From a virus (lineage: Duplodnaviria > Caudoviricetes): a DNA stretch of 64,000 bases. A program made the translations under genes and the position numbers. Below the pieces are notes generated by a model. That model was given only the letters and a program-made list of their open reading frames with translations, had not been told where the DNA came from and did no database searches. The DNA lies in IMG/VR virus record IMGVR_UViG_3300032218_003007, positions 1 to 64,000 of that record; one strand, 5' to 3'. Positions 82-62,817 of this stretch are shown here, in pieces. Within the stretch, counting starts at the first letter, position 1, and each line of letters starts with the position of its first letter.

Positions 82-1854
82 TTATTTTATATCTAAATCC
101 GTGTCGAATCTAGTGTATCCATTTTCTTTAATGACCTTTAATGTGTTATTAACTCGTCCTGAGAGTTCATCTCGATGTGACACGAGCCAAACACTTTTAT
201 TATGATTTCTACTGAGTTTTTTCAAAATAGTAATGGCGTTTTCTACACCTATCGCATCAAGACCGTTATCTAATAACTCATCAATGAAAACAAGATTAAT
301 TGGTTGGTATAAATTTTCAAAAACATCTCTGAATGCTAAACTCAGTGATAATATCAATCTAGTTGTCTCGCCACGAGAAAGATTACCAGGATCTAAATCT
401 CTACCAAGTTCGCTGATACTTACTGTGAGATCATTGTTGAACTTCACAGTATGAGGCAAGCCGATTCGATCTAGATACTGTCCAAGTCTGCCATTCAGAT
501 AGCTGAGATTTTGATCGATAATACTCTTGCGAATGAAACTGTCTTTGTTGGTCAGTAGTTTCAGTAGAAACTCTTGATGGTCTCTGACATTAGAAAGGTC
601 ATTTAGGATGCCATAATCTATTTCTTCAATAGCTTTGGCAGTCATTTCTTCGATTTGCTCAGAATAGGGATCTATATCTTCTGATTTGGCAGCGATTTGC
701 TCTTGCAGCTTGTTTACTGTGCTGCGATGGTCATAAGCATCTCGTTCGTGATCGTAGAAAATCTTAGGCTGAACCCCTAGTTCACCTAGGTCATTTAATG
801 CTTCTGACAGTTCAAGCCATTGACTGTTGGCAGCTAGTGCACGACCTGCTGCTTCTTCTAGCTGAAGACGATGTTCTGCTAGTACTTGTTCATGTTTGGC
901 ATCATGAAACTCTTGTCCACAGGTATGACAAGTGTGATTTTCTAGACTTTGGATTTCTTTGGCTAGTCGATCTACACTGCGAGTTTCTCGGTCTTCATCC
1001 AGCTTACAACGCTTGATTGCAGATTGTAGCTCAGTGATATCTCTGTTTTTTTCATTGTATGCAGCCAGATCTTTGTGAGCTTGAATCTCAGCATCAATGT
1101 CGATTTCTAGCAATGACGCCAGTGATTCTGCTAGACTTTCCAAATCTTCTTGATGCTTGATTTCCCACAGTCGCTTGCGCTTGCGCAGACTTTCAATTTG
1201 TTCTTCAATACGCTTGTTAGCATCAGTCACTGCCTTGATACGAAACTCTTCTTGACTGATGGCATCTTTGGTCAGGCGAATCTGTTCTTTTAATGCTTCT
1301 GCTTTTTCACTGAGTAGCGTAATACCCAGCAACTGCTCGATAATAGTTCGTTGATCGTTAGCCTTCATGTTCAAAAAAGGCTCAGTATAGGTGTTCAGTG
1401 CAATAATATGCTGAAACATATCATGCTTCATGCCTAGTACCTGTTCAATATCAGCTTGTGTTTCTCGGCTGTCACCTTGGGCTTCATCAGTGATTTCTTT
1501 TTCTGAACCTGCTACCCAGAACTTCATGACAGCAGGTTTTCGGCCGCGCTCGATACGATATTCAACGCCGTTTTTTTCAAACTCTACTGTGACTAACATG
1601 TTTTTAGCATTAGTCTTGTTTATTAAATTATCACGCTTTATGTTGTTTAGTGCTTGACCAAATAAACCATAACTCACAGCGTTCATGATAGCACTCTTGC
1701 CAACACCATTTCGAGCACCAGCATCATCGCCGCCTAGATCTAGATTCTCACCTAGAACAAGTGTTAAATCCTTACGATCAAAGTTTATAGCTTGGGTAGC
1801 ATTTCCTACCGATAGGAAATTTTTTAGCGTAACAGTTTTTATTTTTAACATCAC
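82..1854 (-). CDS. gp46: SbcC/Rad50-like recombination nuclease ATPase subunit (T4 gp46-like)
   Basis: LKNFLS N-terminus, Walker A NGVGKS, coiled coil with CHTC zinc hook, LSRGE signature, VFIDE Walker B, SH switch. Confidence 0.95.
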   Translation of the reverse strand: MMLKIKTVTLKNFLSVGNATQAINFDRKDLTLVLGENLDLGGDDAGARNGVGKSAIMNAVSYGLFGQALNNIKRDNLINKTNAKNMLVTVEFEKNGVEYRIERGRKPAVMKFWVAGSEKEITDEAQGDSRETQADIEQVLGMKHDMFQHIIALNTYTEPFLNMKANDQRTIIEQLLGITLLSEKAEALKEQIRLTKDAISQEEFRIKAVTDANKRIEEQIESLRKRKRLWEIKHQEDLESLAESLASLLEIDIDAEIQAHKDLAAYNEKNRDITELQSAIKRCKLDEDRETRSVDRLAKEIQSLENHTCHTCGQEFHDAKHEQVLAEHRLQLEEAAGRALAANSQWLELSEALNDLGELGVQPKIFYDHERDAYDHRSTVNKLQEQIAAKSEDIDPYSEQIEEMTAKAIEEIDYGILNDLSNVRDHQEFLLKLLTNKDSFIRKSIIDQNLSYLNGRLGQYLDRIGLPHTVKFNNDLTVSISELGRDLDPGNLSRGETTRLILSLSLAFRDVFENLYQPINLVFIDELLDNGLDAIGVENAITILKKLSRNHNKSVWLVSHRDELSGRVNNTLKVIKENGYTRFDTDLDIK

Positions 1855-2867
1855 AGATTCCTATAGATGTCTAATAGTAGCTTGGGATCGTATTGATTGC
1901 TATCAATGTTGGTCAACTGTCCTGTGACGATTTGATCTACACTCTTGAAATCAATATTGCCCTGCAACTGATATTCAGTTAAGTCAGTAGTTTTAGCAGG
2001 AATCAAGGTGATTTCTCGCAACTTATAAGTGTCGATAAAAGTTTCCTTGATAAAGCTAGCCTCTTCATAACTGATATCAATGTCCAGATTCACTCGAACA
2101 TGCATGTTTGGCTGCAACATTGCTTCAGTATGTCTCAGTACATCACTGAGTTGAAACACACGATACATAGGTTGTTCTGGCCAAGCATGAAACTCAGGTT
2201 TAGCTCCCCATTCTAGAATCATAATACCGCGATCATCATCACCTGCATCCGCATAGTTATGTGGGAAACAGTTGCCTACATATGTGATGTTGCGCTGAGT
2301 TTGCCGTTTGTGAAAATGTCCAGTGTACACATGTTCAAAGCCTTGGAAATGGTCGCCACGCAGTTCACCGTGTTCAGGCATTGCTACCATAGCATTCATT
2401 AAATAGCCTGGCAACTCGAAATGCCCAAACATATACTTGCCTCGGAGCTTGGGAATACGTCGGTGATCTTCGCCAACTAGCCAAGGAGCAATGACCACAT
2501 CACCATCGTGAAACCAATCATTAACGATGCGTACTCTAGAAAGGTGGCGTGCCCATTGGACGCTTTGTACATCACGCTTGTCGCGATAATAGAGATCGTG
2601 ATTGCCCGGAATAAACAAGACTTGATCAAAGTTATCATTTAAATGCTCCAATCCTTGCAAACTATAGTTTAAGGTTAGGATATTGATTGACGCCCGATTA
2701 TTATGGTAGTCACCCAAGAAAAAACAAGTTTCGCAACCTTCTTCTCGGGCGCGTGCTGTAGCCCATTTGATAAATCGCAGACAATCTTCGTTGTGGACGG
2801 TACTATTTGACTTTAATCCAAAGTGAATATCAGTCAGTACCATGGCTTTTTTGAATAATTTACTCAT
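1851..2867 (-). CDS. gp47: SbcD/Mre11-like nuclease subunit (T4 gp47-like)
   Basis: Metallophosphoesterase motifs TDIHFG, LGD, PGNHD, GHFH; 4-nt overlap with gp46. Confidence 0.95.
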   Translation of the reverse strand: MSKLFKKAMVLTDIHFGLKSNSTVHNEDCLRFIKWATARAREEGCETCFFLGDYHNNRASINILTLNYSLQGLEHLNDNFDQVLFIPGNHDLYYRDKRDVQSVQWARHLSRVRIVNDWFHDGDVVIAPWLVGEDHRRIPKLRGKYMFGHFELPGYLMNAMVAMPEHGELRGDHFQGFEHVYTGHFHKRQTQRNITYVGNCFPHNYADAGDDDRGIMILEWGAKPEFHAWPEQPMYRVFQLSDVLRHTEAMLQPNMHVRVNLDIDISYEEASFIKETFIDTYKLREITLIPAKTTDLTEYQLQGNIDFKSVDQIVTGQLTNIDSNQYDPKLLLDIYRNL

Positions 2868-2873
2868 ACATAG

Positions 2874-2902
2874 ATTATACGAGATTCAATCAGCAATATC
2901 AA
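2874..2902 (-). promoter_or_regulatory. sigma70-type promoter for gp47, probably giving a leaderless mRNA
   Basis: TTGATA-17 nt-TATAAT, then only 6 nt to the ATG and no Shine-Dalgarno. Confidence 0.65.
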
Positions 2903-3777
2903 TCATCTATGTGACCTGGTTTATCCAATCCCCATTCATATTGTCTGGTAAAGCTGGGTGTCATGCCATTTGCTTCCAGGATATCATCACGAATACTTTG
3001 GTTACGTTTTTCAGCATGTAAGATGCGAGTGAAACTATTGGTTATAGCTGCTGTATAATAGGCAAAAGGATTCTGACTTTTGCTTTCGTCGAATTTCAAA
3101 CCATTGTAGCTAAGCTGAAGCAATGCTTGTCCTCGCATTTCGTCATTGTAAGTATAACCTCTCCAATTACTTCGGGTAGCATACTTTTCGCAGAGTTTAA
3201 TAAACATTGTGGCTAATTTTCGGGTAATTTGACCATGTTCTTTGCAGAATTCGCCTGTTTCTAAGTCACCCCGCCAGTGGCTCTTGCCTACACAGTAAAG
3301 TTCTCCTGATTCATCAACTTTATAATGCATAAACGGAGGAAAGTTTGATTTAACGTATTTGTTATGGGTGGTATCTGCTTCGTCGTAATCTATTAGAAGT
3401 GGATCTTCGTCATCTTCGATCTCTAGTGCTACCATTCTTGCTCGTTTGGTCTTAGCATCATCTAATGGTATATGTTCCCATGTCATTACACGAAAAACTA
3501 CGTCAGTGTCTTTGATAGACTCCACTGGTATCTCGAACTCATCAAGTTTTCGCTTATCATTTTCGTCATCTTTAACCGCTTCTGAAAATGCAATTTTCGC
3601 TAATCTTGCAGCTCTGTTGATTCTTGCTTCGGCAATAATGTCTGAATCTATCTTTTTGACATCATCTAGGATCATATCATAATCTGCATACGCAGAATCA
3701 ATGAAGCTACAGTAAGTATTTTTGCTTTTATGTATTTCTTTTAATATGTCTTTATTGTTTAGATAGTTTGTCTTCAT
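2899..3777 (-). CDS. gp55: Late-transcription sigma factor (T4 gp55-like)
   Basis: NYLNNKD N-terminus; YATRSNWRGYTYNDEM and KFDESKSQNPFAYYT motifs typical of gp55-family proteins; adjacent to gp47 as in T4; AAGGA RBS. Confidence 0.85.
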   Translation of the reverse strand: MKTNYLNNKDILKEIHKSKNTYCSFIDSAYADYDMILDDVKKIDSDIIAEARINRAARLAKIAFSEAVKDDENDKRKLDEFEIPVESIKDTDVVFRVMTWEHIPLDDAKTKRARMVALEIEDDEDPLLIDYDEADTTHNKYVKSNFPPFMHYKVDESGELYCVGKSHWRGDLETGEFCKEHGQITRKLATMFIKLCEKYATRSNWRGYTYNDEMRGQALLQLSYNGLKFDESKSQNPFAYYTAAITNSFTRILHAEKRNQSIRDDILEANGMTPSFTRQYEWGLDKPGHIDD

Positions 3778-11773: not shown

Positions 11774-11781
11774 CATAAATA
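11774..11781 (+). promoter_or_regulatory. Late promoter (CATAAATA)
   Basis: Intergenic, upstream of the AGGA RBS of the gp6-like gene. Confidence 0.65.
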
Positions 11782-35759: not shown

Positions 35760-35767
35760 CATAAATA
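35760..35767 (+). promoter_or_regulatory. Late promoter (CATAAATA)
   Basis: Intergenic, upstream of the AGGA RBS of the long fibre gene. Confidence 0.65.
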
Positions 35768-52283: not shown

Positions 52284-52625
52284 TCAATAGTCTATAGTTG
52301 CATAACTGGTTACGTGACCAGTGTTTCCGTCTTGTGTGATTTCTATCACCATTTCTCTGTTAAAGAATTTATTGGTCAATAGGAGATAAAGCTCGTCAGA
52401 CATATCATTGTGTACTTTTAAAGATCCATCATAATATAATGATTCGATCCATGTTTTCAACTCTATTTCAGATGAGATTTGCCTATCTGTATTTTCGATG
52501 TAGATTTTGATCTGTCTGAGTATTTTTGGTTCATATGAATCTGCTAGACAGACTGCGGTCACGATCATTCTTTTAGATCTTGACTTGATTTGCTCTAGCA
52601 GTGCTCGTTCCTGCATGTTAATCAT
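52284..52625 (-). CDS. Degenerate T-fold (QueD-paralogue/DpdL-like) protein lacking the His cluster
   Basis: Coupled to the TGT-like gene by ATGA. Keeps DR.I...LK.W.ESLY...MSD.LY...IEI.QDGNTG, recalled from phage QueD paralogues, but has no HxH/HRH metal motif. Confidence 0.5.
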   Translation of the reverse strand: MINMQERALLEQIKSRSKRMIVTAVCLADSYEPKILRQIKIYIENTDRQISSEIELKTWIESLYYDGSLKVHNDMSDELYLLLTNKFFNREMVIEITQDGNTGHVTSYATIDY

Positions 52626-54280
52626 ACTTGACTAAACAAATCATTGAATGTTGAATGAATCTCAGGTTTATCAGAATCAATTTTTTCTAGATCGTTGGTC
52701 CAAGCATTGATATCTTGTTCAAAGTGTTGATTATACATTGTACTAGAGTTAATAGTTTTTTTACCAATGTTCCCACTTACACCAAGAATATTCATCCAAA
52801 AACTTCCATACCGATCAATGATCTCTAATGATTTAGCTTTGGTAGGAGCAGCGAAAACTTTTTCGATAACATCAGATACATATTCGTGATCTCCGCGAAT
52901 ATTTCTCAGCATTGCTGGATATCTACCATCGTCATATTCACGATTAGCCCGCTGTACAGATTCAATATGCATCCACACATTGTGCGCCTGCAGCAGCGGA
53001 TACGTAAAACCGTCCCAACTATTGTTAGTGCGAGTACCTACACACATATCGCTGATTTTAAGCCTAGAAGTGACCGGACTATCCTCAAAATGCCCGAAAT
53101 GATCCAAATAATCCGTGATTGCTACATCTCTGACGCTACGTGTATCTTTTGCATATTTGTGATTATCAATATGACGAGTCATTCGATAAGTCCACTTGGC
53201 AGCATCTTTCAAATCAATATGATGATAAATCTGTCCAGTTGCTGCTGCGAGAAAAGGACTCGCACAGTCAAAACTGATGGTAAAATCAGGATTCCAATGA
53301 CGTCGAATACTACGCTGCATCGCAGTGAGTAATACTGCCCACTCTAACCTACTAATACCCAACAAATGCATCCAATCATGCAATCCTTGTTCTAACAAGC
53401 CGTCGTAGCGAAGTAATACCAAACGCTTAAGCAACAAATGTACATCACATTTGTTTTGTCCGCCCATTGCCCATCCATCGAAATGGCGACCAGGATATTT
53501 CTTGGGATCACAATAATGTTTCATAGTATCATACCAGATTTCTGCAGATGCGTGGTTAATGCCATGCAACACATTCAGAAACTTGGTACCACCGTTGTCC
53601 TTGCCTTTGCGATTGGCAATGAAATATTCGTTATTGTATTTGGTGCCGTCTACTGCTTCTTTGAGAGTGGTAACGCAGGTTGCTTTCACCGCATTAGGAT
53701 CACGAATGATCCAATTAGGAATATCTAGTGTCATACTATAATCGGCAACGGTGTCTAGCCAGGTAAGAATCTGAGTTCGTTTATCATCAGCAGCTTTTAG
53801 CTTGTTCAACTGTTGCTGATAAGGATCAACTTGCACAATCTTTTTGCCTTTTTTAATGCTTACGGGGCCTGCAGACATTAAATCATTCAGAGTTTTCTTG
53901 ACTTCTGAACTATTGGGATCTCTCCAATCACCAGCCCACACACCTTTGCCAATCTGAAAGCCGCCGGAATCACCTACAATAAATGAACCTGGCTCTCGAT
54001 TGCGAATCATGTCTTCACTTTCATCAAATTTAGATACATCTAGATTTACATGTCCACCAGAACTCAAGGTCCAACGATATGGAAACAGTGCTTTCTTACT
54101 GTTAAGCCAATTCAATTGTTCTAAATCTTGAATTTGCGCAGGAAATCTGGCTGGATTTACAGCATTTTTAAATCTTTGTTCTGAAATAATTGATGAAAAC
54201 GACGGACTCAATGCAGGCAGAAAGATTGCATAATCCTTCTGCTTGGCTGTCAAGTTATCTTGTGGATATAGATCGGACAT
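52622..54280 (-). CDS. dpdA: TGT-fold DNA guanine transglycosylase (DpdA-like)
   Basis: GDSGGFQ, MTLDIP, GWAMGG, MHLLG and ISFDCASP TGT motifs; clustered with folE/queD/queE and replication genes. Start reassigned to MSDLY (54280). Confidence 0.8.
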   Translation of the reverse strand: MSDLYPQDNLTAKQKDYAIFLPALSPSFSSIISEQRFKNAVNPARFPAQIQDLEQLNWLNSKKALFPYRWTLSSGGHVNLDVSKFDESEDMIRNREPGSFIVGDSGGFQIGKGVWAGDWRDPNSSEVKKTLNDLMSAGPVSIKKGKKIVQVDPYQQQLNKLKAADDKRTQILTWLDTVADYSMTLDIPNWIIRDPNAVKATCVTTLKEAVDGTKYNNEYFIANRKGKDNGGTKFLNVLHGINHASAEIWYDTMKHYCDPKKYPGRHFDGWAMGGQNKCDVHLLLKRLVLLRYDGLLEQGLHDWMHLLGISRLEWAVLLTAMQRSIRRHWNPDFTISFDCASPFLAAATGQIYHHIDLKDAAKWTYRMTRHIDNHKYAKDTRSVRDVAITDYLDHFGHFEDSPVTSRLKISDMCVGTRTNNSWDGFTYPLLQAHNVWMHIESVQRANREYDDGRYPAMLRNIRGDHEYVSDVIEKVFAAPTKAKSLEIIDRYGSFWMNILGVSGNIGKKTINSSTMYNQHFEQDINAWTNDLEKIDSDKPEIHSTFNDLFSQV

Positions 54281-54281
54281 G

Positions 54282-55019
54282 TTATTTGGTCTGTGCTGGG
54301 ATGATGTACTCATAATCAGCGATTCCAGTATCGACTGTGATCTTGGCTGCACCCTCATCGCTGAACTTGAAGGTTTTATCGCCTGGCAAATTAAGAATGG
54401 TAATCACCGTGTTAACAGGCCATAACCAACCTTTGCTCAGATTTCCGCTAACATTAGGTTCAAATACAAAACTACCAGCATTGTTTGAAGGATCACCAAA
54501 ATAGAACTTCAGTGAGCCATTTTCAGTCTTGGCCATAAAAGTAGTTTCGTCACTGTTGGCCGATGCTTGAGCCTTTAGACGCTGCAAACCTAGAACACTA
54601 GGAGCGATATCTACATTCCATTTCACGCCTTTGAACTTGACGCCTTTGAGCTTTTCGTTCACGACCTTGCTGTTCATCAAACGATAATCATTTTTGAAAT
54701 CACCGTGCTTGTTTTCAAAATGAACACCGCTAAGCATATCTTCGCCTGTGTCTTCATCTTTCTTATAAGTCATGGTAATGTTTGCATCTTCACGATATTC
54801 GTCGATATTTAGAATAGTATTCAATCGAGATAGATTTGGTACACCAAATACGCCTTCAAATTCAGCGATTGGTGCTTTGAATTTGCCTTCGATGATTACT
54901 GTTCTATCTTCTGATACAGCGTTGATCAGTGTTTCTTCTGCAGAACCAGTGATCTTGAGCAGGTCAACTTTATTAAGTCCATAAGTATACTGCACTATAT
55001 TCTTGAGTATGTCTTTCAT
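54282..55019 (-). CDS. gp45: DNA polymerase sliding clamp (gp45/PCNA-like)
   Basis: 245 aa directly downstream of the polymerase; clamp-like pattern ending YEYIIPAQTK; GGAG RBS. Confidence 0.7.
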   Translation of the reverse strand: MKDILKNIVQYTYGLNKVDLLKITGSAEETLINAVSEDRTVIIEGKFKAPIAEFEGVFGVPNLSRLNTILNIDEYREDANITMTYKKDEDTGEDMLSGVHFENKHGDFKNDYRLMNSKVVNEKLKGVKFKGVKWNVDIAPSVLGLQRLKAQASANSDETTFMAKTENGSLKFYFGDPSNNAGSFVFEPNVSGNLSKGWLWPVNTVITILNLPGDKTFKFSDEGAAKITVDTGIADYEYIIPAQTK

Positions 55020-55084: not shown

Positions 55085-56559
55085 TTATTCAAATGTAAAA
55101 AGACTGCGGAAAGTACTTTTGATATCAGTGCGTGATGTCATGTCCCAATTCAGCACGCCTAATAAATTTTCTACTTTCTGATCAACAATAGTTGATTCCA
55201 TCATATCATCATCGAACGGCAAATCTTTAAACCAAGAAGGAATATTTGATTCATCGATAGGATAACCTACACTTGTATATCCCAGTGGGTTATCCTTGAT
55301 CTTGCAAACAATAGTTTTCATACCGTCCACGATTTTCATACTATAGTTATCGTTGAACATTTGTCTTAGACGATTCCAATTCATTGCAGCACGTACATGT
55401 CCAGGCATATTAGTTTTTCCATGAAGAGTTTCTGCTGTGCTGTATTTGGTAAGATTGTTTACACGTTTAGGAGTTCCTTTCTGCCAAGCAGGAAGATCTT
55501 TAAACATCAATTTGAACTCTCGCACTTTCGCGACAACGGTATCACGTTCAGCGCCGGTCAGCACATCCAACAGAATTTTGCTGAGAAAGTCCTGCACAAT
55601 TTTAGGAGTATCCGAACGCTTTAAGTCTAATCCCATGGCTTTGACTTTTCCAGGTTTGCCATCGAAATCCAGTCGCTTGCCTTCAAGTTCATAGATCAAC
55701 ACAGCATAGCGCTTTTTCTTGATAAACAAACCTTTTTCTGCTACCAGTTCACGACCAGCCTGGATAATACTTCCCATATCTCGTGGGCAATGGCACGCAC
55801 GTTCCATAAACGCCGGAAATGAATCGTTCACAGAATCTGCGATGGTATCATACAGACCTACACAGATATCCTTGTTCCATTCCATGTTGCCTGCTTCTAC
55901 TTCTGACTTCACGATAGGCCATGCTGAGAAATATACAGAGTCTGTGTCACCGTAGATAATGCTGTCACCGACATGATTGTACTCGCCGGCGATGGCTTCA
56001 TTTACAAATGCATCCATGTGTTTGGCAATAATACGACCAGTGAGTGTTGTGCTTTGTCCAATACGATGGTCAAAGAATCTGCAGCCTGCATTTAGAATAG
56101 CGCCATATACATTTATGTTCAGCTAGTTTCACTATTGCTAGCCCGTTTATTAAAAAAACTGCCTCATATTTCTATAAGGATCAGACTATATCACCATCCA
56201 CTAAGTATGGATGCTCCCCATTTCGACTCGCTTGAGTCTACGTCTTTCGACTAGTCGTTGAACCTTCGCATTATGCGCTTGGCTGCTGATTGTCTTCAAC
56301 TTAATGGTAAGAGTTTCCAGCATTTAAAGGAGTTATTCAACCAATGTTGCCATTGGAGGTCGCAATAAGGTTACGAATTTAAGTTGATCTTCTTGACCAA
56401 CTGACGCTTATCCCAGAAAGCTACAGATTGTTTTACTGATTCAGTATCTGAGTGAAAAATTTTGCCGTCTTTTATAACAAGATTATTATTATGGCAAAAC
56501 TCTGTAAGTTCCTCTTTAGTTCCTGATTCCAGTATCGAATGTAACTTATTGAAGTCCAT
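55085..56559 (-). CDS. polB: DNA polymerase B, C-terminal subunit, spliced: join(56559..56373, 56109..55085), 403 aa
   Basis: Removing 56110-56372 restores KKINLNS-L-YGAILNAGCRFFD (motif B) in frame with YGDTDS (motif C) and KKKRY; GAGAGG RBS before ATG 56559. Confidence 0.92.
56110..56372 (-). ncRNA. ORF-less self-splicing group I intron (263 nt, IA2-like)
   Basis: Exon ends in U and intron ends in G. P1 UCGU/GCGA with U-G pair, P2 CCAAUG-GCAA-CAUUGG, P AAAUGCUGGAAA (56314-56325), Q AAUCAGCAGCC (56281-56291), R GUUCAACGACUA (56252-56263), S GAUAUAGUC (56184-56192), plus P7.1, P7.2, P8 and P9 hairpins. Confidence 0.95.
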
Positions 56560-57529
56560 TTATACCTCTCTTAAATAATATTTGTTGTGTATGCGCATCT
56601 TGTATCGCTTTACTTTCAAAAATGATCTCCGGGCAAAAATTATCGGATGATATTCTAATAAGTTGTATCTGATGTTCTACGCATATTTTGTGTTTGATTA
56701 TATCATTTTTTATAGATTGTTCTAACTGATGCCAATATTCTCCATCTACCTCAACTAATAATAACATATCATCTAGAAAAAAATCAAATTTTTTACTACC
56801 CAATACGTATTGTTTTTGGTATCTTATATTTTTACTCACTAAAAACTGTTCGAACTTCTTTTCAAGTTTGGTATCTTTTTTTGAAGGAAAAACAAATCCT
56901 GTTTCTGCTATATGTTCTTTTCTTCTAGAACTTAGTAAATTTAGATATTTTTTAAATTCTTCTTCGTTTTCTCTTCTACGTTTCCAAGAATCTTTTTGCT
57001 TCTGTGTTTTTTTTACTTTGACTTCCTCACTAAGATTGATCTTTTTACCAATTTTCGAATTAGATATTTTTTTCTTAGATTTCTCTGTATGAGGCCCTCT
57101 AGATATTCCTATCTTAGAATCAAAATAACACTGTTGGCATTCCATGCCATCGATAAAGTTTCCAATATTAACTTTATAGACACCGTGCTCTTTACAGCAT
57201 ATTTCTATTTGATCAGTTCTTGTTAAAAGTTTCAACGGCACAGAATGAATGGAGTATTTGTCAGTTTGTGCTTTATCCAGGGCATCTAATGTTATTACCA
57301 ATTTGGTATTTATGTGATCGCGACATCTCTTTTTTGCATCAGGGAGTCTGAATTTTTTACAAATGCTCAACGGTATATTGCACATTTCACAAGTAGGCGG
57401 AGGTTCTTTACGAAGATAAAGTTGTATTGCAGCATTAACATCAAAAATGTTTTTCTCTCCCCCGTAATACTCTTTTAAACGTTTAAATTGGCGAGGATAT
57501 CTTTTTTTAAAATCAATTGTTGAAATCAT
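56546..57529 (-). mobile_element. Free-standing homing endonuclease gene (Zn-ribbon/NUMOD3-like DNA binding plus Vsr/DUF559-like EDxHD nuclease)
   Basis: CEMC, CCKEHG, CQQC; HTEKSKKKIS; TKLEKKF...FDF...VEVDGEYWH...ND; visibly more AT-rich than its flanks; sits inside the polymerase locus. Confidence 0.88.
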
Positions 57530-57562
57530 AATGAAGTATTTATGCTCAACAGTTGATTTTAA
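57507..57562 (-). promoter_or_regulatory. 17-bp hairpin enclosing a late promoter and the endonuclease start codon
   Basis: Arms 57546-57562 and 57507-57523 (one mismatch). The 22-nt loop holds CATAAATA (57537-57544) and the ATG (57527-57529). Confidence 0.85.
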
Positions 57563-57571
57563 TCTTTTTGA

Positions 57572-59227
57572 CTAACTTTTTAATCTATTTGGAATAGGAA
57601 TTCCAGATTCTAAAGAAGTCCATTGTCTTTTAGTTTTCTGAAGTTCTTTGCGTTCTGAATACCAACGCTCTAAAAGACCAGGTATAATACCTTTTACATC
57701 GAATCGAAATATTGTTCCATTCGCGCTCAAAGTCCACGGTTGGTTGCCCTCAAATATCATTCGCCATACTTCATCAGCAGTATGGACTGTGCTATTGCCA
57801 TCTTCCCAGTCAATGGTAATTTCTGTTCCTACTTCTGCATTCATCACAGCCTGGTATTCTAAACTGCCAAATAAACCGTCCCATGCATCTGCAAACGTAG
57901 AACCGATTACTCGTTTGCCATTTATTGTCTTTTCTGCCATCTTTTCGTGAATATAATGATCTGTCATTATTGGGCGAAGTTGACCCACGATAGTTTCTGG
58001 CCCCATATTCAATGCACGCAGAGTTGACGGATAAAGACTGTTTAAGTCGATAGCTCCAATGTATTCATGCATGCCTTTTTTAGGGTGGGCAACATAAGCA
58101 CCAGCAGCTTTGTCATCAGTACTGCCATCTAAATGTTTTTCACTTTTGCGACGATTTGGAACTACCATGCCACGAGCGTGGGCTTCATTGATGATAGCCT
58201 GTTCAGTAACAGCCACTGCCCCCATTGTTGTTTGCAATAACACAGTGTTGTCATGAGCGAGTTCATTGGCAAGTTCCAAAAATCTTAACTTTTTATCTAG
58301 TTTAGCCAACAACATGGTATCTTGACGGTTGTAATCGATGAACTTTTCAAATTCTCGATTGTACAACTGATCTAGAGTTCCTTCATACGCTACTTTGCTG
58401 CCTACATCTTCATATTCACCAATGCTGTCTAGACTATAACTATGGCGTTCTTCGTATGTATACTTGCGATACAGTTGCATGTAGTCTAGATGAACCCGAC
58501 CTATCAGATCGAAGGTAACCATTTCTGCACCAAATCGTTCAAATATTTTTTGTTTGGGATATTGCCCCCATAAACAAAGTCTACGAGTATCGTCTTTGCT
58601 GAGAATCTTGTTTATACGCATAACAGTATACGGAATATCAAAACCTTCTGAGTTCCATCCACTCAAGATATCAGCATCATCAATAAGATCAAGAAAAGTC
58701 TCTAACATGTCTTCTTCTCGATCAAACAAAAAACAGTTGTCAAACTTAGCGCAGATTTCTTCTGCTGTTTGCCAGCTATAAGTTTTAGGTGGCAACACCA
58801 ATGTCACCATCTTTTCCATCCAGTTTAGATATACACTGATGCTGGTTATCTTGTTGAAAGGATCAGTGGTTGGTGCATATCCTCGTTCGCTGTCAAAATC
58901 TACCTCGATGTCGAAGAACGCTGTTTGCAGCTTAGGAGAACTTGCACCTAGATAGTTATCAGCCAAACATCGAAATATTGGATTGATATCTGATTCCCAG
59001 ATTCGTTTACCTGAATTTATCTTGAGTTCTTTTTGAAATTCTTTGTTATTACGAGTACTGAATCTACTCACTGGAGTACCGTAGATACTACGAAATTTTC
59101 CGCGAGGATCATCGTAATAGAACGTGTAATTGGCTGGATATTCTCTGTAAACTCGCTGGCCGTCTATTCGCTCAGCTACATGAATACGATCTTTGGCCCG
59201 ATCATAAAGGGCGTCTACATATGACAT
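57572..59227 (-). CDS. polB: DNA polymerase B, N-terminal subunit (exonuclease, motif A, first fingers helix)
   Basis: FFDIEVD, GWNSEGFDIPY and YNRQD exonuclease motifs, GAYV, DLNSLYPS, GIIPGLLERWYSERKELQK, then a 20-aa non-polymerase tail and stop. Confidence 0.95.
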   Translation of the reverse strand: MSYVDALYDRAKDRIHVAERIDGQRVYREYPANYTFYYDDPRGKFRSIYGTPVSRFSTRNNKEFQKELKINSGKRIWESDINPIFRCLADNYLGASSPKLQTAFFDIEVDFDSERGYAPTTDPFNKITSISVYLNWMEKMVTLVLPPKTYSWQTAEEICAKFDNCFLFDREEDMLETFLDLIDDADILSGWNSEGFDIPYTVMRINKILSKDDTRRLCLWGQYPKQKIFERFGAEMVTFDLIGRVHLDYMQLYRKYTYEERHSYSLDSIGEYEDVGSKVAYEGTLDQLYNREFEKFIDYNRQDTMLLAKLDKKLRFLELANELAHDNTVLLQTTMGAVAVTEQAIINEAHARGMVVPNRRKSEKHLDGSTDDKAAGAYVAHPKKGMHEYIGAIDLNSLYPSTLRALNMGPETIVGQLRPIMTDHYIHEKMAEKTINGKRVIGSTFADAWDGLFGSLEYQAVMNAEVGTEITIDWEDGNSTVHTADEVWRMIFEGNQPWTLSANGTIFRFDVKGIIPGLLERWYSERKELQKTKRQWTSLESGIPIPNRLKS

Positions 59228-62037: not shown

Positions 62038-62817
62038 TTATTTATCTTCCAAAAGATCTTTTATTGCCGACATACTGGTGAAACGTATCAGCAAACAAGG
62101 GTCGCCAACCCAACATTCATTGTCTGAATAATATTGGCGGGTTGCAGCAAATTCGCTCGTGCTTAGTAGTTCCCAATGGGCTCGCTGCGGAGACAAAGCG
62201 TGATATAAGTACTGGTAAAAGTATTTTGGATTTAAGCCAAATTTTTTACAGTAGTTTTCTGCTTCTGGTGTTAAAACTTCTTGTGCAACATCTCCAGCAC
62301 TTAAATTCAAATAATCTTCGAGCCAATTATTGAATGCCTGCATGCTGGTATAACCATAAAAATGAAGATTGGGGTCAACAGTAATTGGCGTTCGCCATAT
62401 ATCATTTTGTGGACAAATTCCAATCTTGCTGCCATTAAATGGAATAACGGCATAAGTATCACCAGAACTTTTTTTCCCGATAGGATCAGCAAATCCTTGG
62501 GCGTAATCAAAGCCGGCCGAGCAAATTAGGCTTTTACTGCGACGAGGATACTCTTTCATATATGGACTATTATCCAGCAGAACAGTATAATGGTTGGTAG
62601 TGTTTTGACTGATTCTTGATCCGGAACTTGGATATACAATTCTGTAATCCCCAAAATCAGTCATGCCACGATACAATGTTTTTTCACCTTTTTGTTGAAC
62701 CAGCGGTAAAAAATCACTGCACTTGGTTTTTAAAATTTCCACAGCCTGATCTTGTGATAAATCTTTGTGCTGATAGGCTTGTACGCCAGCCTCAATGATG
62801 AATTCTTGATATCTCAT
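62038..62817 (-). CDS. Probable internal head protein with an ADP-ribosyltransferase-like fold
   Basis: MRYQEFIIEA N-terminus; LYRG...SLICS...YAVIPFNG...NECW. Confidence 0.55.
   Translation of the reverse strand: MRYQEFIIEAGVQAYQHKDLSQDQAVEILKTKCSDFLPLVQQKGEKTLYRGMTDFGDYRIVYPSSGSRISQNTTNHYTVLLDNSPYMKEYPRRSKSLICSAGFDYAQGFADPIGKKSSGDTYAVIPFNGSKIGICPQNDIWRTPITVDPNLHFYGYTSMQAFNNWLEDYLNLSAGDVAQEVLTPEAENYCKKFGLNPKYFYQYLYHALSPQRAHWELLSTSEFAATRQYYSDNECWVGDPCLLIRFTSMSAIKDLLEDK

Follow-up and report, generated by a model that had tools for sequence, protein, structure and literature searches.

We analyzed the replicative DNA polymerase locus of an uncultured freshwater jumbo phage. The locus lies in a stretch of 64,000 nucleotides (nt), here called the window, that belongs to an IMG/VR contig of 101.6 kb (29% complete by CheckV estimate). 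At positions 55085-59227, with all features on the minus strand, the window carries a polB gene for a family-B replicative polymerase of the T4 type, and this gene is broken into three pieces by a composite mobile unit consisting of a free-standing endonuclease gene and a group I intron. The parts follow each other in the order polB-A, intercistronic spacer, endonuclease gene, exon 1 of a second polymerase cistron (B), intron and exon 2 of B (Table 1).

Table 1. Features of the split polB locus, with positions in the window (ORF, open reading frame; aa, amino acids; E, E-value; z, z-score against shuffled sequences).
Feature	Positions	Strand	Basis
polB subunit A (gp43A-like), 551 aa	57572..59227	-	ORF call; Pfam PF03104 E 3.3e-16, PF00136 E 2.4e-11
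tip-N, last ~19 codons of A	57575..57631	-	alignments; coding-type substitutions
intercistronic spacer, 42 nt	57530..57571	-	ATAAATA conserved in 5/5 otherwise divergent spacers
predicted RNA hairpin around promoter-like motif and endonuclease start codon	57507..57562	-	-17 kcal/mol, z -5.1
endonuclease ORF, 327 aa, EDxHD (Vsr-like) by prediction	56546..57529	-	weak Pfam, PHROGs, Foldseek, invariant residues
segment lost in endonuclease-deleted variants, 939 nt	56612..57550	-	L005 alignment; run X4 and X5 contigs
subunit B exon 1, 187 nt, 62 codons	56373..56559	-	ORF call; 62 codons in 9 lineages
predicted ORF-less group I intron, 263 nt	56110..56372	-	RF00028 73.7 bits, compensatory pairs, frame-restoring join
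subunit B exon 2	55085..56109	-	rest of motif B, motif C (YGDTDS), palm, thumb

Subunit A, which is 69-82% identical to unsplit relatives, contains the exonuclease domain, motif A (DLNSLYPS) and the first fingers helix, and ends in a tail that we call tip-N (...ERWYSERKELQKTKRQWTSLESGIPIPNRLKS, followed by the stop codon). Cistron B begins with an ATG at 56559, 5 nt downstream of a GAGAGG ribosome-binding site (RBS; 56565-56570), and its start is overlapped by the final 14 nt of the endonuclease ORF. Exon 1 encodes a second segment, tip-C (codons 1-44, 56428-56559), followed by the second fingers helix as far as motif B (KKINLNS); the peptide, MDFNKL...AFWDKRQLVKKINLNS, is terminated by a stop at 56371-56373 directly after KINLNS. 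The polymerase continues about 260 nt downstream of this stop in a different frame (VYGAILN...YGDTDS..., to 55085). Motif B (KKINLNS-L-YG) is whole only after a modelled splice, which yields a B chain of 403 aa. As in family-B polymerases of the T4 gp43 type, PF03104 and PF00136 are matched above their cut-offs and motifs A, B and C are all present. A first-pass annotation, made from the sequence alone, had described a polB frame that stops with an added tail after the first fingers helix, a free-standing 327-aa endonuclease between the halves, and motif A on one chain with motifs B and C on the other; these claims, together with its quoted sequences and coordinates, were borne out. It had further proposed that the polymerase resumes in a new gene with its own RBS. 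The start codon and RBS are indeed there, but the frame is open for 62 codons only and is not continuous.

Judged from its sequence and predicted pairing, the gap in motif B is an ORF-less group I intron resembling subgroup IA. The Rfam model RF00028 (gathering score 50) matched 56162-56382 over its full length (1-253; E 5.6e-18) and was the sole Rfam family found in the whole window. The match lies 186 nt downstream of the endonuclease stop codon, which overturns the earlier statement that no intron core flanks the endonuclease. We set the 5' splice site behind U56373 and took G56110 as the last base of the intron, which puts the insertion between S and L (NS^LYG) and joins the exons as AAT TCG T^TA TAT GGC (N-S-L-Y-G); the predicted ligated junction reads ...AAATTCGT followed by TATATGGC..., with TATATGG on the side of exon 2. 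Exon UCGU pairs with the guide GCGA in P1, the 3' end of the intron reads ...AAATG, and no ORF beyond a 40-codon stretch is contained within it. Eight homologous introns of 254-268 nt occupy the identical insertion site on other contigs, all preceded by ...CG-T (the 5' exon ends in U) and all with G as the terminal base. The bridged codon is always Leu because the 3' exon begins with TA or TG, and the modelled join restores S-L-Y-G in 9 of 9 homologues. RNAalifold identified compensatory (both-sided) changes at 15 of 75 predicted pairs, and the homologue on contig L097 combines exon GCGU with guide GCGC as against UCGU/GCGA elsewhere, a covariation across P1. Assignment to subgroup IA is consistent with two small hairpins (P7.1/P7.2) located between P7 and the 3' strand of P3. 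Self-splicing of such an intron would restore K-x3-NSLYG.

Structure prediction identifies the endonuclease as a homing endonuclease of the EDxHD (Vsr-like) family that is encoded by a free-standing gene. Pfam Vsr and MTES_1575 gave weak matches at residues 217-299 (E 6e-6, below their cut-offs), and PHROGs assigned the protein to phrog_559 (E 1e-19). An AlphaFold (AF2) model built from 13 homologues reached a mean pLDDT (predicted local distance difference test score) of 83, and its top Foldseek matches were chains A/B of 3r3p, the catalytic domain of I-Bth0305I (target template-modelling score 0.66, probability 1.00), followed by Vsr (1cw0, 1vsr). I-Bth0305I is the prototype of the EDxHD family (PMC3239194). 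The putative catalytic residues E260, D262, H267, D276 and H280 are invariant in the 13 homologues, as are two N-terminal Cys/His clusters. Searches of the Protein Data Bank (PDB) with phmmer gave only a spurious VIK1 match for the endonuclease and no match for the last 122 aa of A. The IMG/VR related-locus search with the single endonuclease protein returned no relative, and the relatives were obtained through protein search.

The arrangement recurs. The contig from the source run shows 0 differences across the region, a second sample likewise carries the endonuclease-bearing form, and the independent IMG/VR contig L005 is 99% identical to the window. Because the source run agrees and the forms recur in other samples, the locus is not an artefact of assembly, a risk that had been raised when it was first described. 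Endonuclease homologues (46-57% identity) were traced to contigs for eight separate clusters, and in 8 of 8 we found polB-A, endonuclease, 62-codon exon 1, intron and exon 2 in the order of the window, with introns 79-87% identical to that of the window. Ten lineages, the window included, therefore share the unit at both sites, and intron and endonuclease are linked in all ten. Of 367 matching IMG/VR loci 80 were kept. Among the kept loci, the complete relatives with 69-79% identity have polymerases encoded by single ORFs of about 886-899 aa with neither endonuclease nor intron; without duplicates they make up the 47 unsplit sequences on which the trees draw, and all 47 have a short fingers tip. 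An empty allele with the intron alone was not found among the kept loci. Visual inspection of the intron site in empty alleles gave no convincing pseudo-palindromic target, and the synonymous codons there are very variable. The nearest named relatives are jumbo phages: Phosso (51% identity; one coding sequence (CDS) of 1012 aa), PA5oct (49%; broken at motif C by a split intein and an endonuclease, PMC6892783) and Atu_ph07 (46%; two CDS). A megablast search of the region against the phage collection gave only a chance match of 51 nt.

Natural variants reveal what happens when the endonuclease is lost. Contigs from runs X4 and X5 (freshwater metagenomes from 2017, two other studies) join 56611 directly to 57551, and L005 (L005:8653-8740) keeps the split, the intron and the last 22 endonuclease codons with the RBS of B, which lies within the invariant terminal endonuclease codons K-R-G-I. 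Only 87 nt separate the cistrons in the deleted variants. Since L005, X4 and X5 lack the endonuclease and yet stay split, the split polymerase persists without it, and so clean a deletion fits the loss phase of the homing-endonuclease cycle. A contig from run X2 (joint 56107/56387) represents a related phage that reads KKILLNSLYG across the site without an intron, in the same sample as a bearer of the unit, which indicates that potential recipient alleles co-occur with element-bearing phages.

Alignment at the breakpoint showed that A has about 13 extra residues at its C terminus and B about 44 at its N terminus; both are absent from the 47 close unsplit relatives, whose short tip reads ...ERKEMQAKKKAAET-PEDTAFWDKRQL..., and both are present and conserved in all ten element-bearing lineages. 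Tip-N follows the motif W-x2-L-x2-G-[IL]-x-[IL]-P-x-R-L, with W536, L539, G542, P546, R548 and L549 invariant across 6 lineages, and tip-C follows M-[DN]-[FI]-x2-L-x3-L-x2-G-x4-L-x3-C-x2-N-x-L-x-I-x-D-x-K-I. Substitutions fall mostly at third codon positions (third, first and second positions: 0.65, 0.39 and 0.26 for the tail; 0.60, 0.40 and 0.30 for tip-C) and neither segment has indels. Tail and tip-C are therefore translated and constrained, and this speaks as well against an intron large enough to include the endonuclease gene. The first-pass annotation had taken the two extensions to be new. That they set the split genes apart was right, but they are not novel. A tip-C profile found residues 598-625 of the unsplit Phosso polymerase (E 0.0096, the positionally equivalent fingers tip), residues 4-39 at the extreme N terminus of Atu_ph07 B (E 8.5e-4) and residues 572-605 of PA5oct (E 0.12). 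Each match is weak alone; each is the best match in its polymerase, and the three are consistent in position. Because the profile reaches these distant fingers tips, the tip is borrowed or ancestral polymerase sequence and not newly made. Longer proteins with a close copy of tip-C did not appear in the search. A SAP/HeH-like motif, considered for the tip, was dropped because Pfam searches with exon-1 peptides (E <= 10) returned noise only (e.g. SAP_new25, E 0.094). A complex prediction for A 470-551 with exon 1, run on our own alignments, scored 0.25 against a mark of 0.32 and weighs neither way. We propose that the two extensions are halves of one fingers-tip segment, which is carried along by the unit and may help to stabilize the split enzyme, and that A and the spliced B chain would assemble non-covalently into an active polymerase.

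Phylogenetic comparison showed that the unit has a history of its own. In the polB-A tree the element-bearers do not form one clade (log-likelihood difference 133, approximately unbiased (AU) test p 0.0035); with all ten bearers included they form a basal grade, and the window and L097 are nested inside the short-tip clade. Between L089 and L096 identity is 81% for polB-A, 48% for the tip, 53% for the endonuclease and 82% for the intron, as against 75%, 71%, 71% and 95% between L086 and L089, so that the tip segments follow the endonuclease and not the host gene. On the longer concatenated sets, the host tree groups L089, L090 and L096 with 100% support and rejects (L086,L089,L090) at p 2e-5, and the element tree groups L086 with L089, again with 100% support, and rejects (L089,L096) at p 0.004. 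In a sliding-window comparison L089 changes partner at about nt 1500-3180 of the gene, a mosaic tract of about 1.7 kb that reaches from about 140 nt before the stop of A to about 90 nt past the intron. This mosaic indicates that one conversion tract moved tail, endonuclease, tip-C, exon 1 and intron together. The disagreement of element and host trees and a mosaic tract covering the whole unit show that the unit moved between polymerase genes. Its history is a mixture of loss and gain. For the window itself, sliding identity to the short-tip and bearer groups revealed no conversion tract beyond about residue 520, a comparison that cannot separate gain from retention.

The spacer upstream of the endonuclease carries signals that may govern its expression. 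ATAAATA stands at 57537-57543, 7 nt before the endonuclease ATG, in a spacer without a Shine-Dalgarno sequence. The heptamer is rarer than expected in the window (15 copies versus 27 expected), and 6 of the 15 copies, that of the endonuclease included, lie 5-25 nt upstream of long ORFs; a seventh hit in that tally (57313) falls within the endonuclease ORF. Sites in the window include 62039-62045, 35761-35767 and 11775-11781. As a promoter, ATAAATA is a candidate for the T4-like late type in this phage. A predicted hairpin encloses both the motif and the endonuclease start codon, and 0 of 200 shuffled sequences folded as well. Comparable hairpins were predicted for L086 (z -3.6) and L089 (z -2.9); that of L085 was not significant (z -1.7, 10 of 200 shuffles as good) and leaves the AUG outside, and L092 has no such hairpin. 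The endonuclease genes for T4 I-TevI, segB and Aeh1 mobE are not expressed from transcripts that read through into them and are switched on from a late promoter (PMC2988022), and the spacer of the window is arranged in the same manner. By this likeness, the hairpin may hide the endonuclease start codon on read-through polymerase mRNA, and the enzyme would be made late, from its own ATAAATA promoter.

The closest known counterpart is the gene 43 locus of Aeromonas phage 25 (Petrov, Ratnayaka and Karam 2010, J Mol Biol 395:457), which we read directly (L093). Its order is that of the window (43A, endonuclease, 43B exon 1, ORF-less motif-B intron, exon 2), 43A likewise stops at the fingers tip, the untranslated, hairpin-bearing spacer behind it has 44 nt, as compared with 42 nt in the window, and exon 1 of 43B measures about 55-62 codons across the two. 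In contrast, the phage 25 endonuclease is a GIY-YIG (seg-like) protein of 267 aa, its intron (RF00028, 64 bits) is inserted after NSLYGAL^G, about 12 nt downstream of the window site, and its host is a T4-like phage of about 161 kb rather than a member of a clade of uncultured jumbo phages. Unlike that of phage 25, the unit of the window recurs across at least 10 diverged lineages, and it brings along a tip segment missing from close unsplit relatives. As the endonuclease family differs and the intron sites are about 12 nt apart, the unit of the window is of independent origin. The phage 25 enzyme reportedly cleaves intron-free 43B targets. The two polymerase halves of phage 25 co-purify and are active, per review (PMC2988022, PMC2993671), and the intron of its gene 43 was predicted to use the free-standing endonuclease for mobility (PMC2993671). 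The precedents named by the first-pass annotation, gp43A/B of phages 25 and 44RR and the mobE-split nrdA of Aeh1, are sound (PMC2988022).

Collaborative homing is described for the cyanophage psbA intron and the free-standing F-CphI (Bonocora and Shub 2009, via PMC2988022; PMC6083498), with trans-homing of T4 mobE cited beside it as a parallel. As in the window, an endonuclease-less intron there neighbors a free-standing endonuclease gene, and in the psbA model alleles without the intron are cleaved where it would insert, while donors are shielded by it. The window differs from that system in its endonuclease family and in the place of the endonuclease gene, which lies within the intron-bearing gene itself and splits it. 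EDxHD enzymes are known from group I introns, from the gap between split-intein halves and from free-standing insertions, for the most part in genes for phage replication (PMC3239194, PMC2677866). The window enzyme shares the C-terminal Vsr-like nuclease fold of I-Bth0305I and differs from its EDxHD relatives by the N-terminal region with two Cys/His clusters and from the 'fractured genes' in that no intein halves flank it. In the literature searched, no EDxHD endonuclease was found paired with a separate, ORF-less intron at a fingers split of polB.

Taken together, the whole is best explained as a collaborative-homing unit with a split polymerase, a reading that we consider likely. In a mixed infection the endonuclease would cut those alleles of related phages that lack the intron. 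The cut would most likely fall at the intron insertion site or directly beside it, a site that is interrupted by the intron in the donor, and repair would then copy intron, endonuclease and flanking tip codons together. Cleavage at the insertion site is suggested by analogy with phage 25 and the psbA system. Several points weigh against this explanation. Splicing of the intron is deduced from sequence features. The clade pairs for the incongruence tests were picked after seeing the identity matrices, AU tests on polB-A or endonuclease protein alone are not significant (p 0.069, 0.34, 0.16), and neither is the conflict between element and host for the window versus L097 (p 0.24). Since the bearers are a basal grade, patchiness may partly reflect loss. 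The 101.6-kb contig holds no second polB, and another polymerase in the unseen ~70% of the genome is possible. Finally, the target of the endonuclease could be a short-tip site and not the intron site.

A further-reaching version is possible, although we would rather doubt it than rely on it. Here the unit would be a gene-splitting cassette that contains the endonuclease, a protective intron and both tip halves from another polymerase lineage, and that installs the break together with a reassembly interface when it converts a short-tip, unsplit polB. Atu_ph07 and Phosso, both 46-51% identical to A, have a fingers-tip segment homologous to that of the window, and the break of Atu_ph07 (NQLK-stop / VEYDVNHL versus NRLKS-stop / MDFNKL) falls within two alignment columns of that of the window. 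The Atu_ph07 gene has a spacer of 18 nt and contains neither endonuclease nor intron, and that of Phosso is not split. The two adjacent 'DNA polymerase' CDS of Atu_ph07 (L002:4001-6970) are in the state of phage 44RR.

With respect to the target, it is unlikely that the endonuclease recognizes the short fingers tip, its own insertion site in empty alleles, and that the intron, about 50 nt from the tip module, is a passenger that is co-converted. Phage endonucleases of the free-standing kind often cleave close to where they are themselves inserted (PMC2988022), the cassette would destroy such a site simply by inserting, and the mosaic tract is roughly symmetric around the unit and gives no pointer to the intron site. 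This is countered by the linkage of intron and endonuclease in every lineage despite about 50% endonuclease divergence, by the persistence of the intron after endonuclease deletion, by the lack of empty alleles with the intron alone among the kept loci, by the reported action of the phage 25 endonuclease on the 43B site without intron, and by the mobility predicted for the phage 25 intron.

An improbable origin of the tails is the one put forward by the first-pass annotation, namely that insertion of the endonuclease made them de novo as a dedicated heterodimerization module. The model for this is Aeh1, where, according to PMC3045599, nrdA is split by mobE and the tails are needed for assembly and are unique sequences that arose at insertion. 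The window shares with Aeh1 a split essential gene, a free-standing endonuclease, the lack of splicing between the halves and tails that are missing from close unsplit homologues, and its tails are conserved, show coding-type substitutions and track the endonuclease. However, they resemble the native fingers tip of other polymerases, as the tip-C matches in Phosso, Atu_ph07 B and PA5oct indicate, and a de novo origin ignores the intron.

It is quite improbable that the unit is an old immobile relic, inherited vertically and made patchy by repeated loss only. The basal position of the bearers and the long tips of the outgroups would suit such a history, as would the overall correlation between endonuclease and polB-A identities (Spearman 0.63) and the existence of endonuclease-deleted forms. 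Yet on the polB-A tree with ten bearers loss alone needs at least about 8 independent precise losses, each to the same short tip, the host and element trees conflict significantly for L086, L089 and L096 with sharp mosaic boundaries, and the endonuclease ORFs are intact in 13 of 13 cases with invariant putative catalytic residues. Hardly credible is a joining of A and B after all, by a larger intron or a split intein across the endonuclease or in appearance through misassembly: although tail, spacer and tip-C of the deleted variant make up an intron-sized stretch and split inteins with free-standing endonucleases occur at motif C of related polB genes, a permissive Rfam scan (E <= 1) yields the motif-B intron only, Pfam finds no intein in A or exon 1 and the tail is only about 20 aa long (as the first-pass annotation had held in denying both splicing of A to B and flanking inteins), tail and tip-C evolve as coding sequence, the flanks align with contiguous Phosso polymerase sequence, the Atu_ph07 spacer is only 18 nt, and the source-run contig and other samples agree.

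Other insertions were seen at motif C of the same polymerases. In L070 (L070:2064-6144), a short-tip, intron-less relative, polB is 'fractured' at motif C: YGD^SVTKDTL... looks like an N-intein half and is followed by a stop, a free-standing 316-aa ORF with IEFNGDYWH (Vsr-like) and a C-intein-like ...ILLHN^TDSVYF. From its sequence this looks like another endonuclease-based element, distinct from that of the window, that splits a polymerase of this clade. The element-bearers L085 (L085:6412-8886), L086 (L086:6421-8121) and L097 (L097:2484-4013) have an intein-type insertion at motif C (Pfam Intein_splicing), with a further ORF of 321 aa at that of L085. Their polymerases would thus come in 3-4 pieces that need RNA splicing, protein splicing and non-covalent assembly. 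In the window, polB is directly followed downstream by a 245-aa ORF (54282-55019), in the same position as the sliding-clamp gene in Phosso, and next by a 578-aa ORF (52622-54358).

The design of a fingers split with an endonuclease and a motif-B intron is already known from phage 25 and has here arisen again from different parts. A second independent instance points to a recurrent way of parasitizing the replicative polymerase rather than a one-off. What lacks a clear precedent is the fingers-tip segment moving along with the unit; in its presumed role it is like the Aeh1 tails, and it appears to be derived from a polymerase. For annotation, without an intron model the polB of these jumbo phages will be mis-called as 3-4 fragments, including a 62-aa 'hypothetical protein'. 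In its ten diverged versions of the unit, 47 empty alleles, variants without the endonuclease and a mapped conversion tract, the family offers material to probe collaborative homing and the tolerance of EDxHD enzymes for synonymous drift at their target. The family also lets one ask whether the protein segments needed for a viable split enzyme can travel on a mobile element. If the unit is indeed a gene-splitting cassette, it would be understandable that a split in an essential enzyme is tolerated and that, in this clade, the tip occurs only together with the unit.

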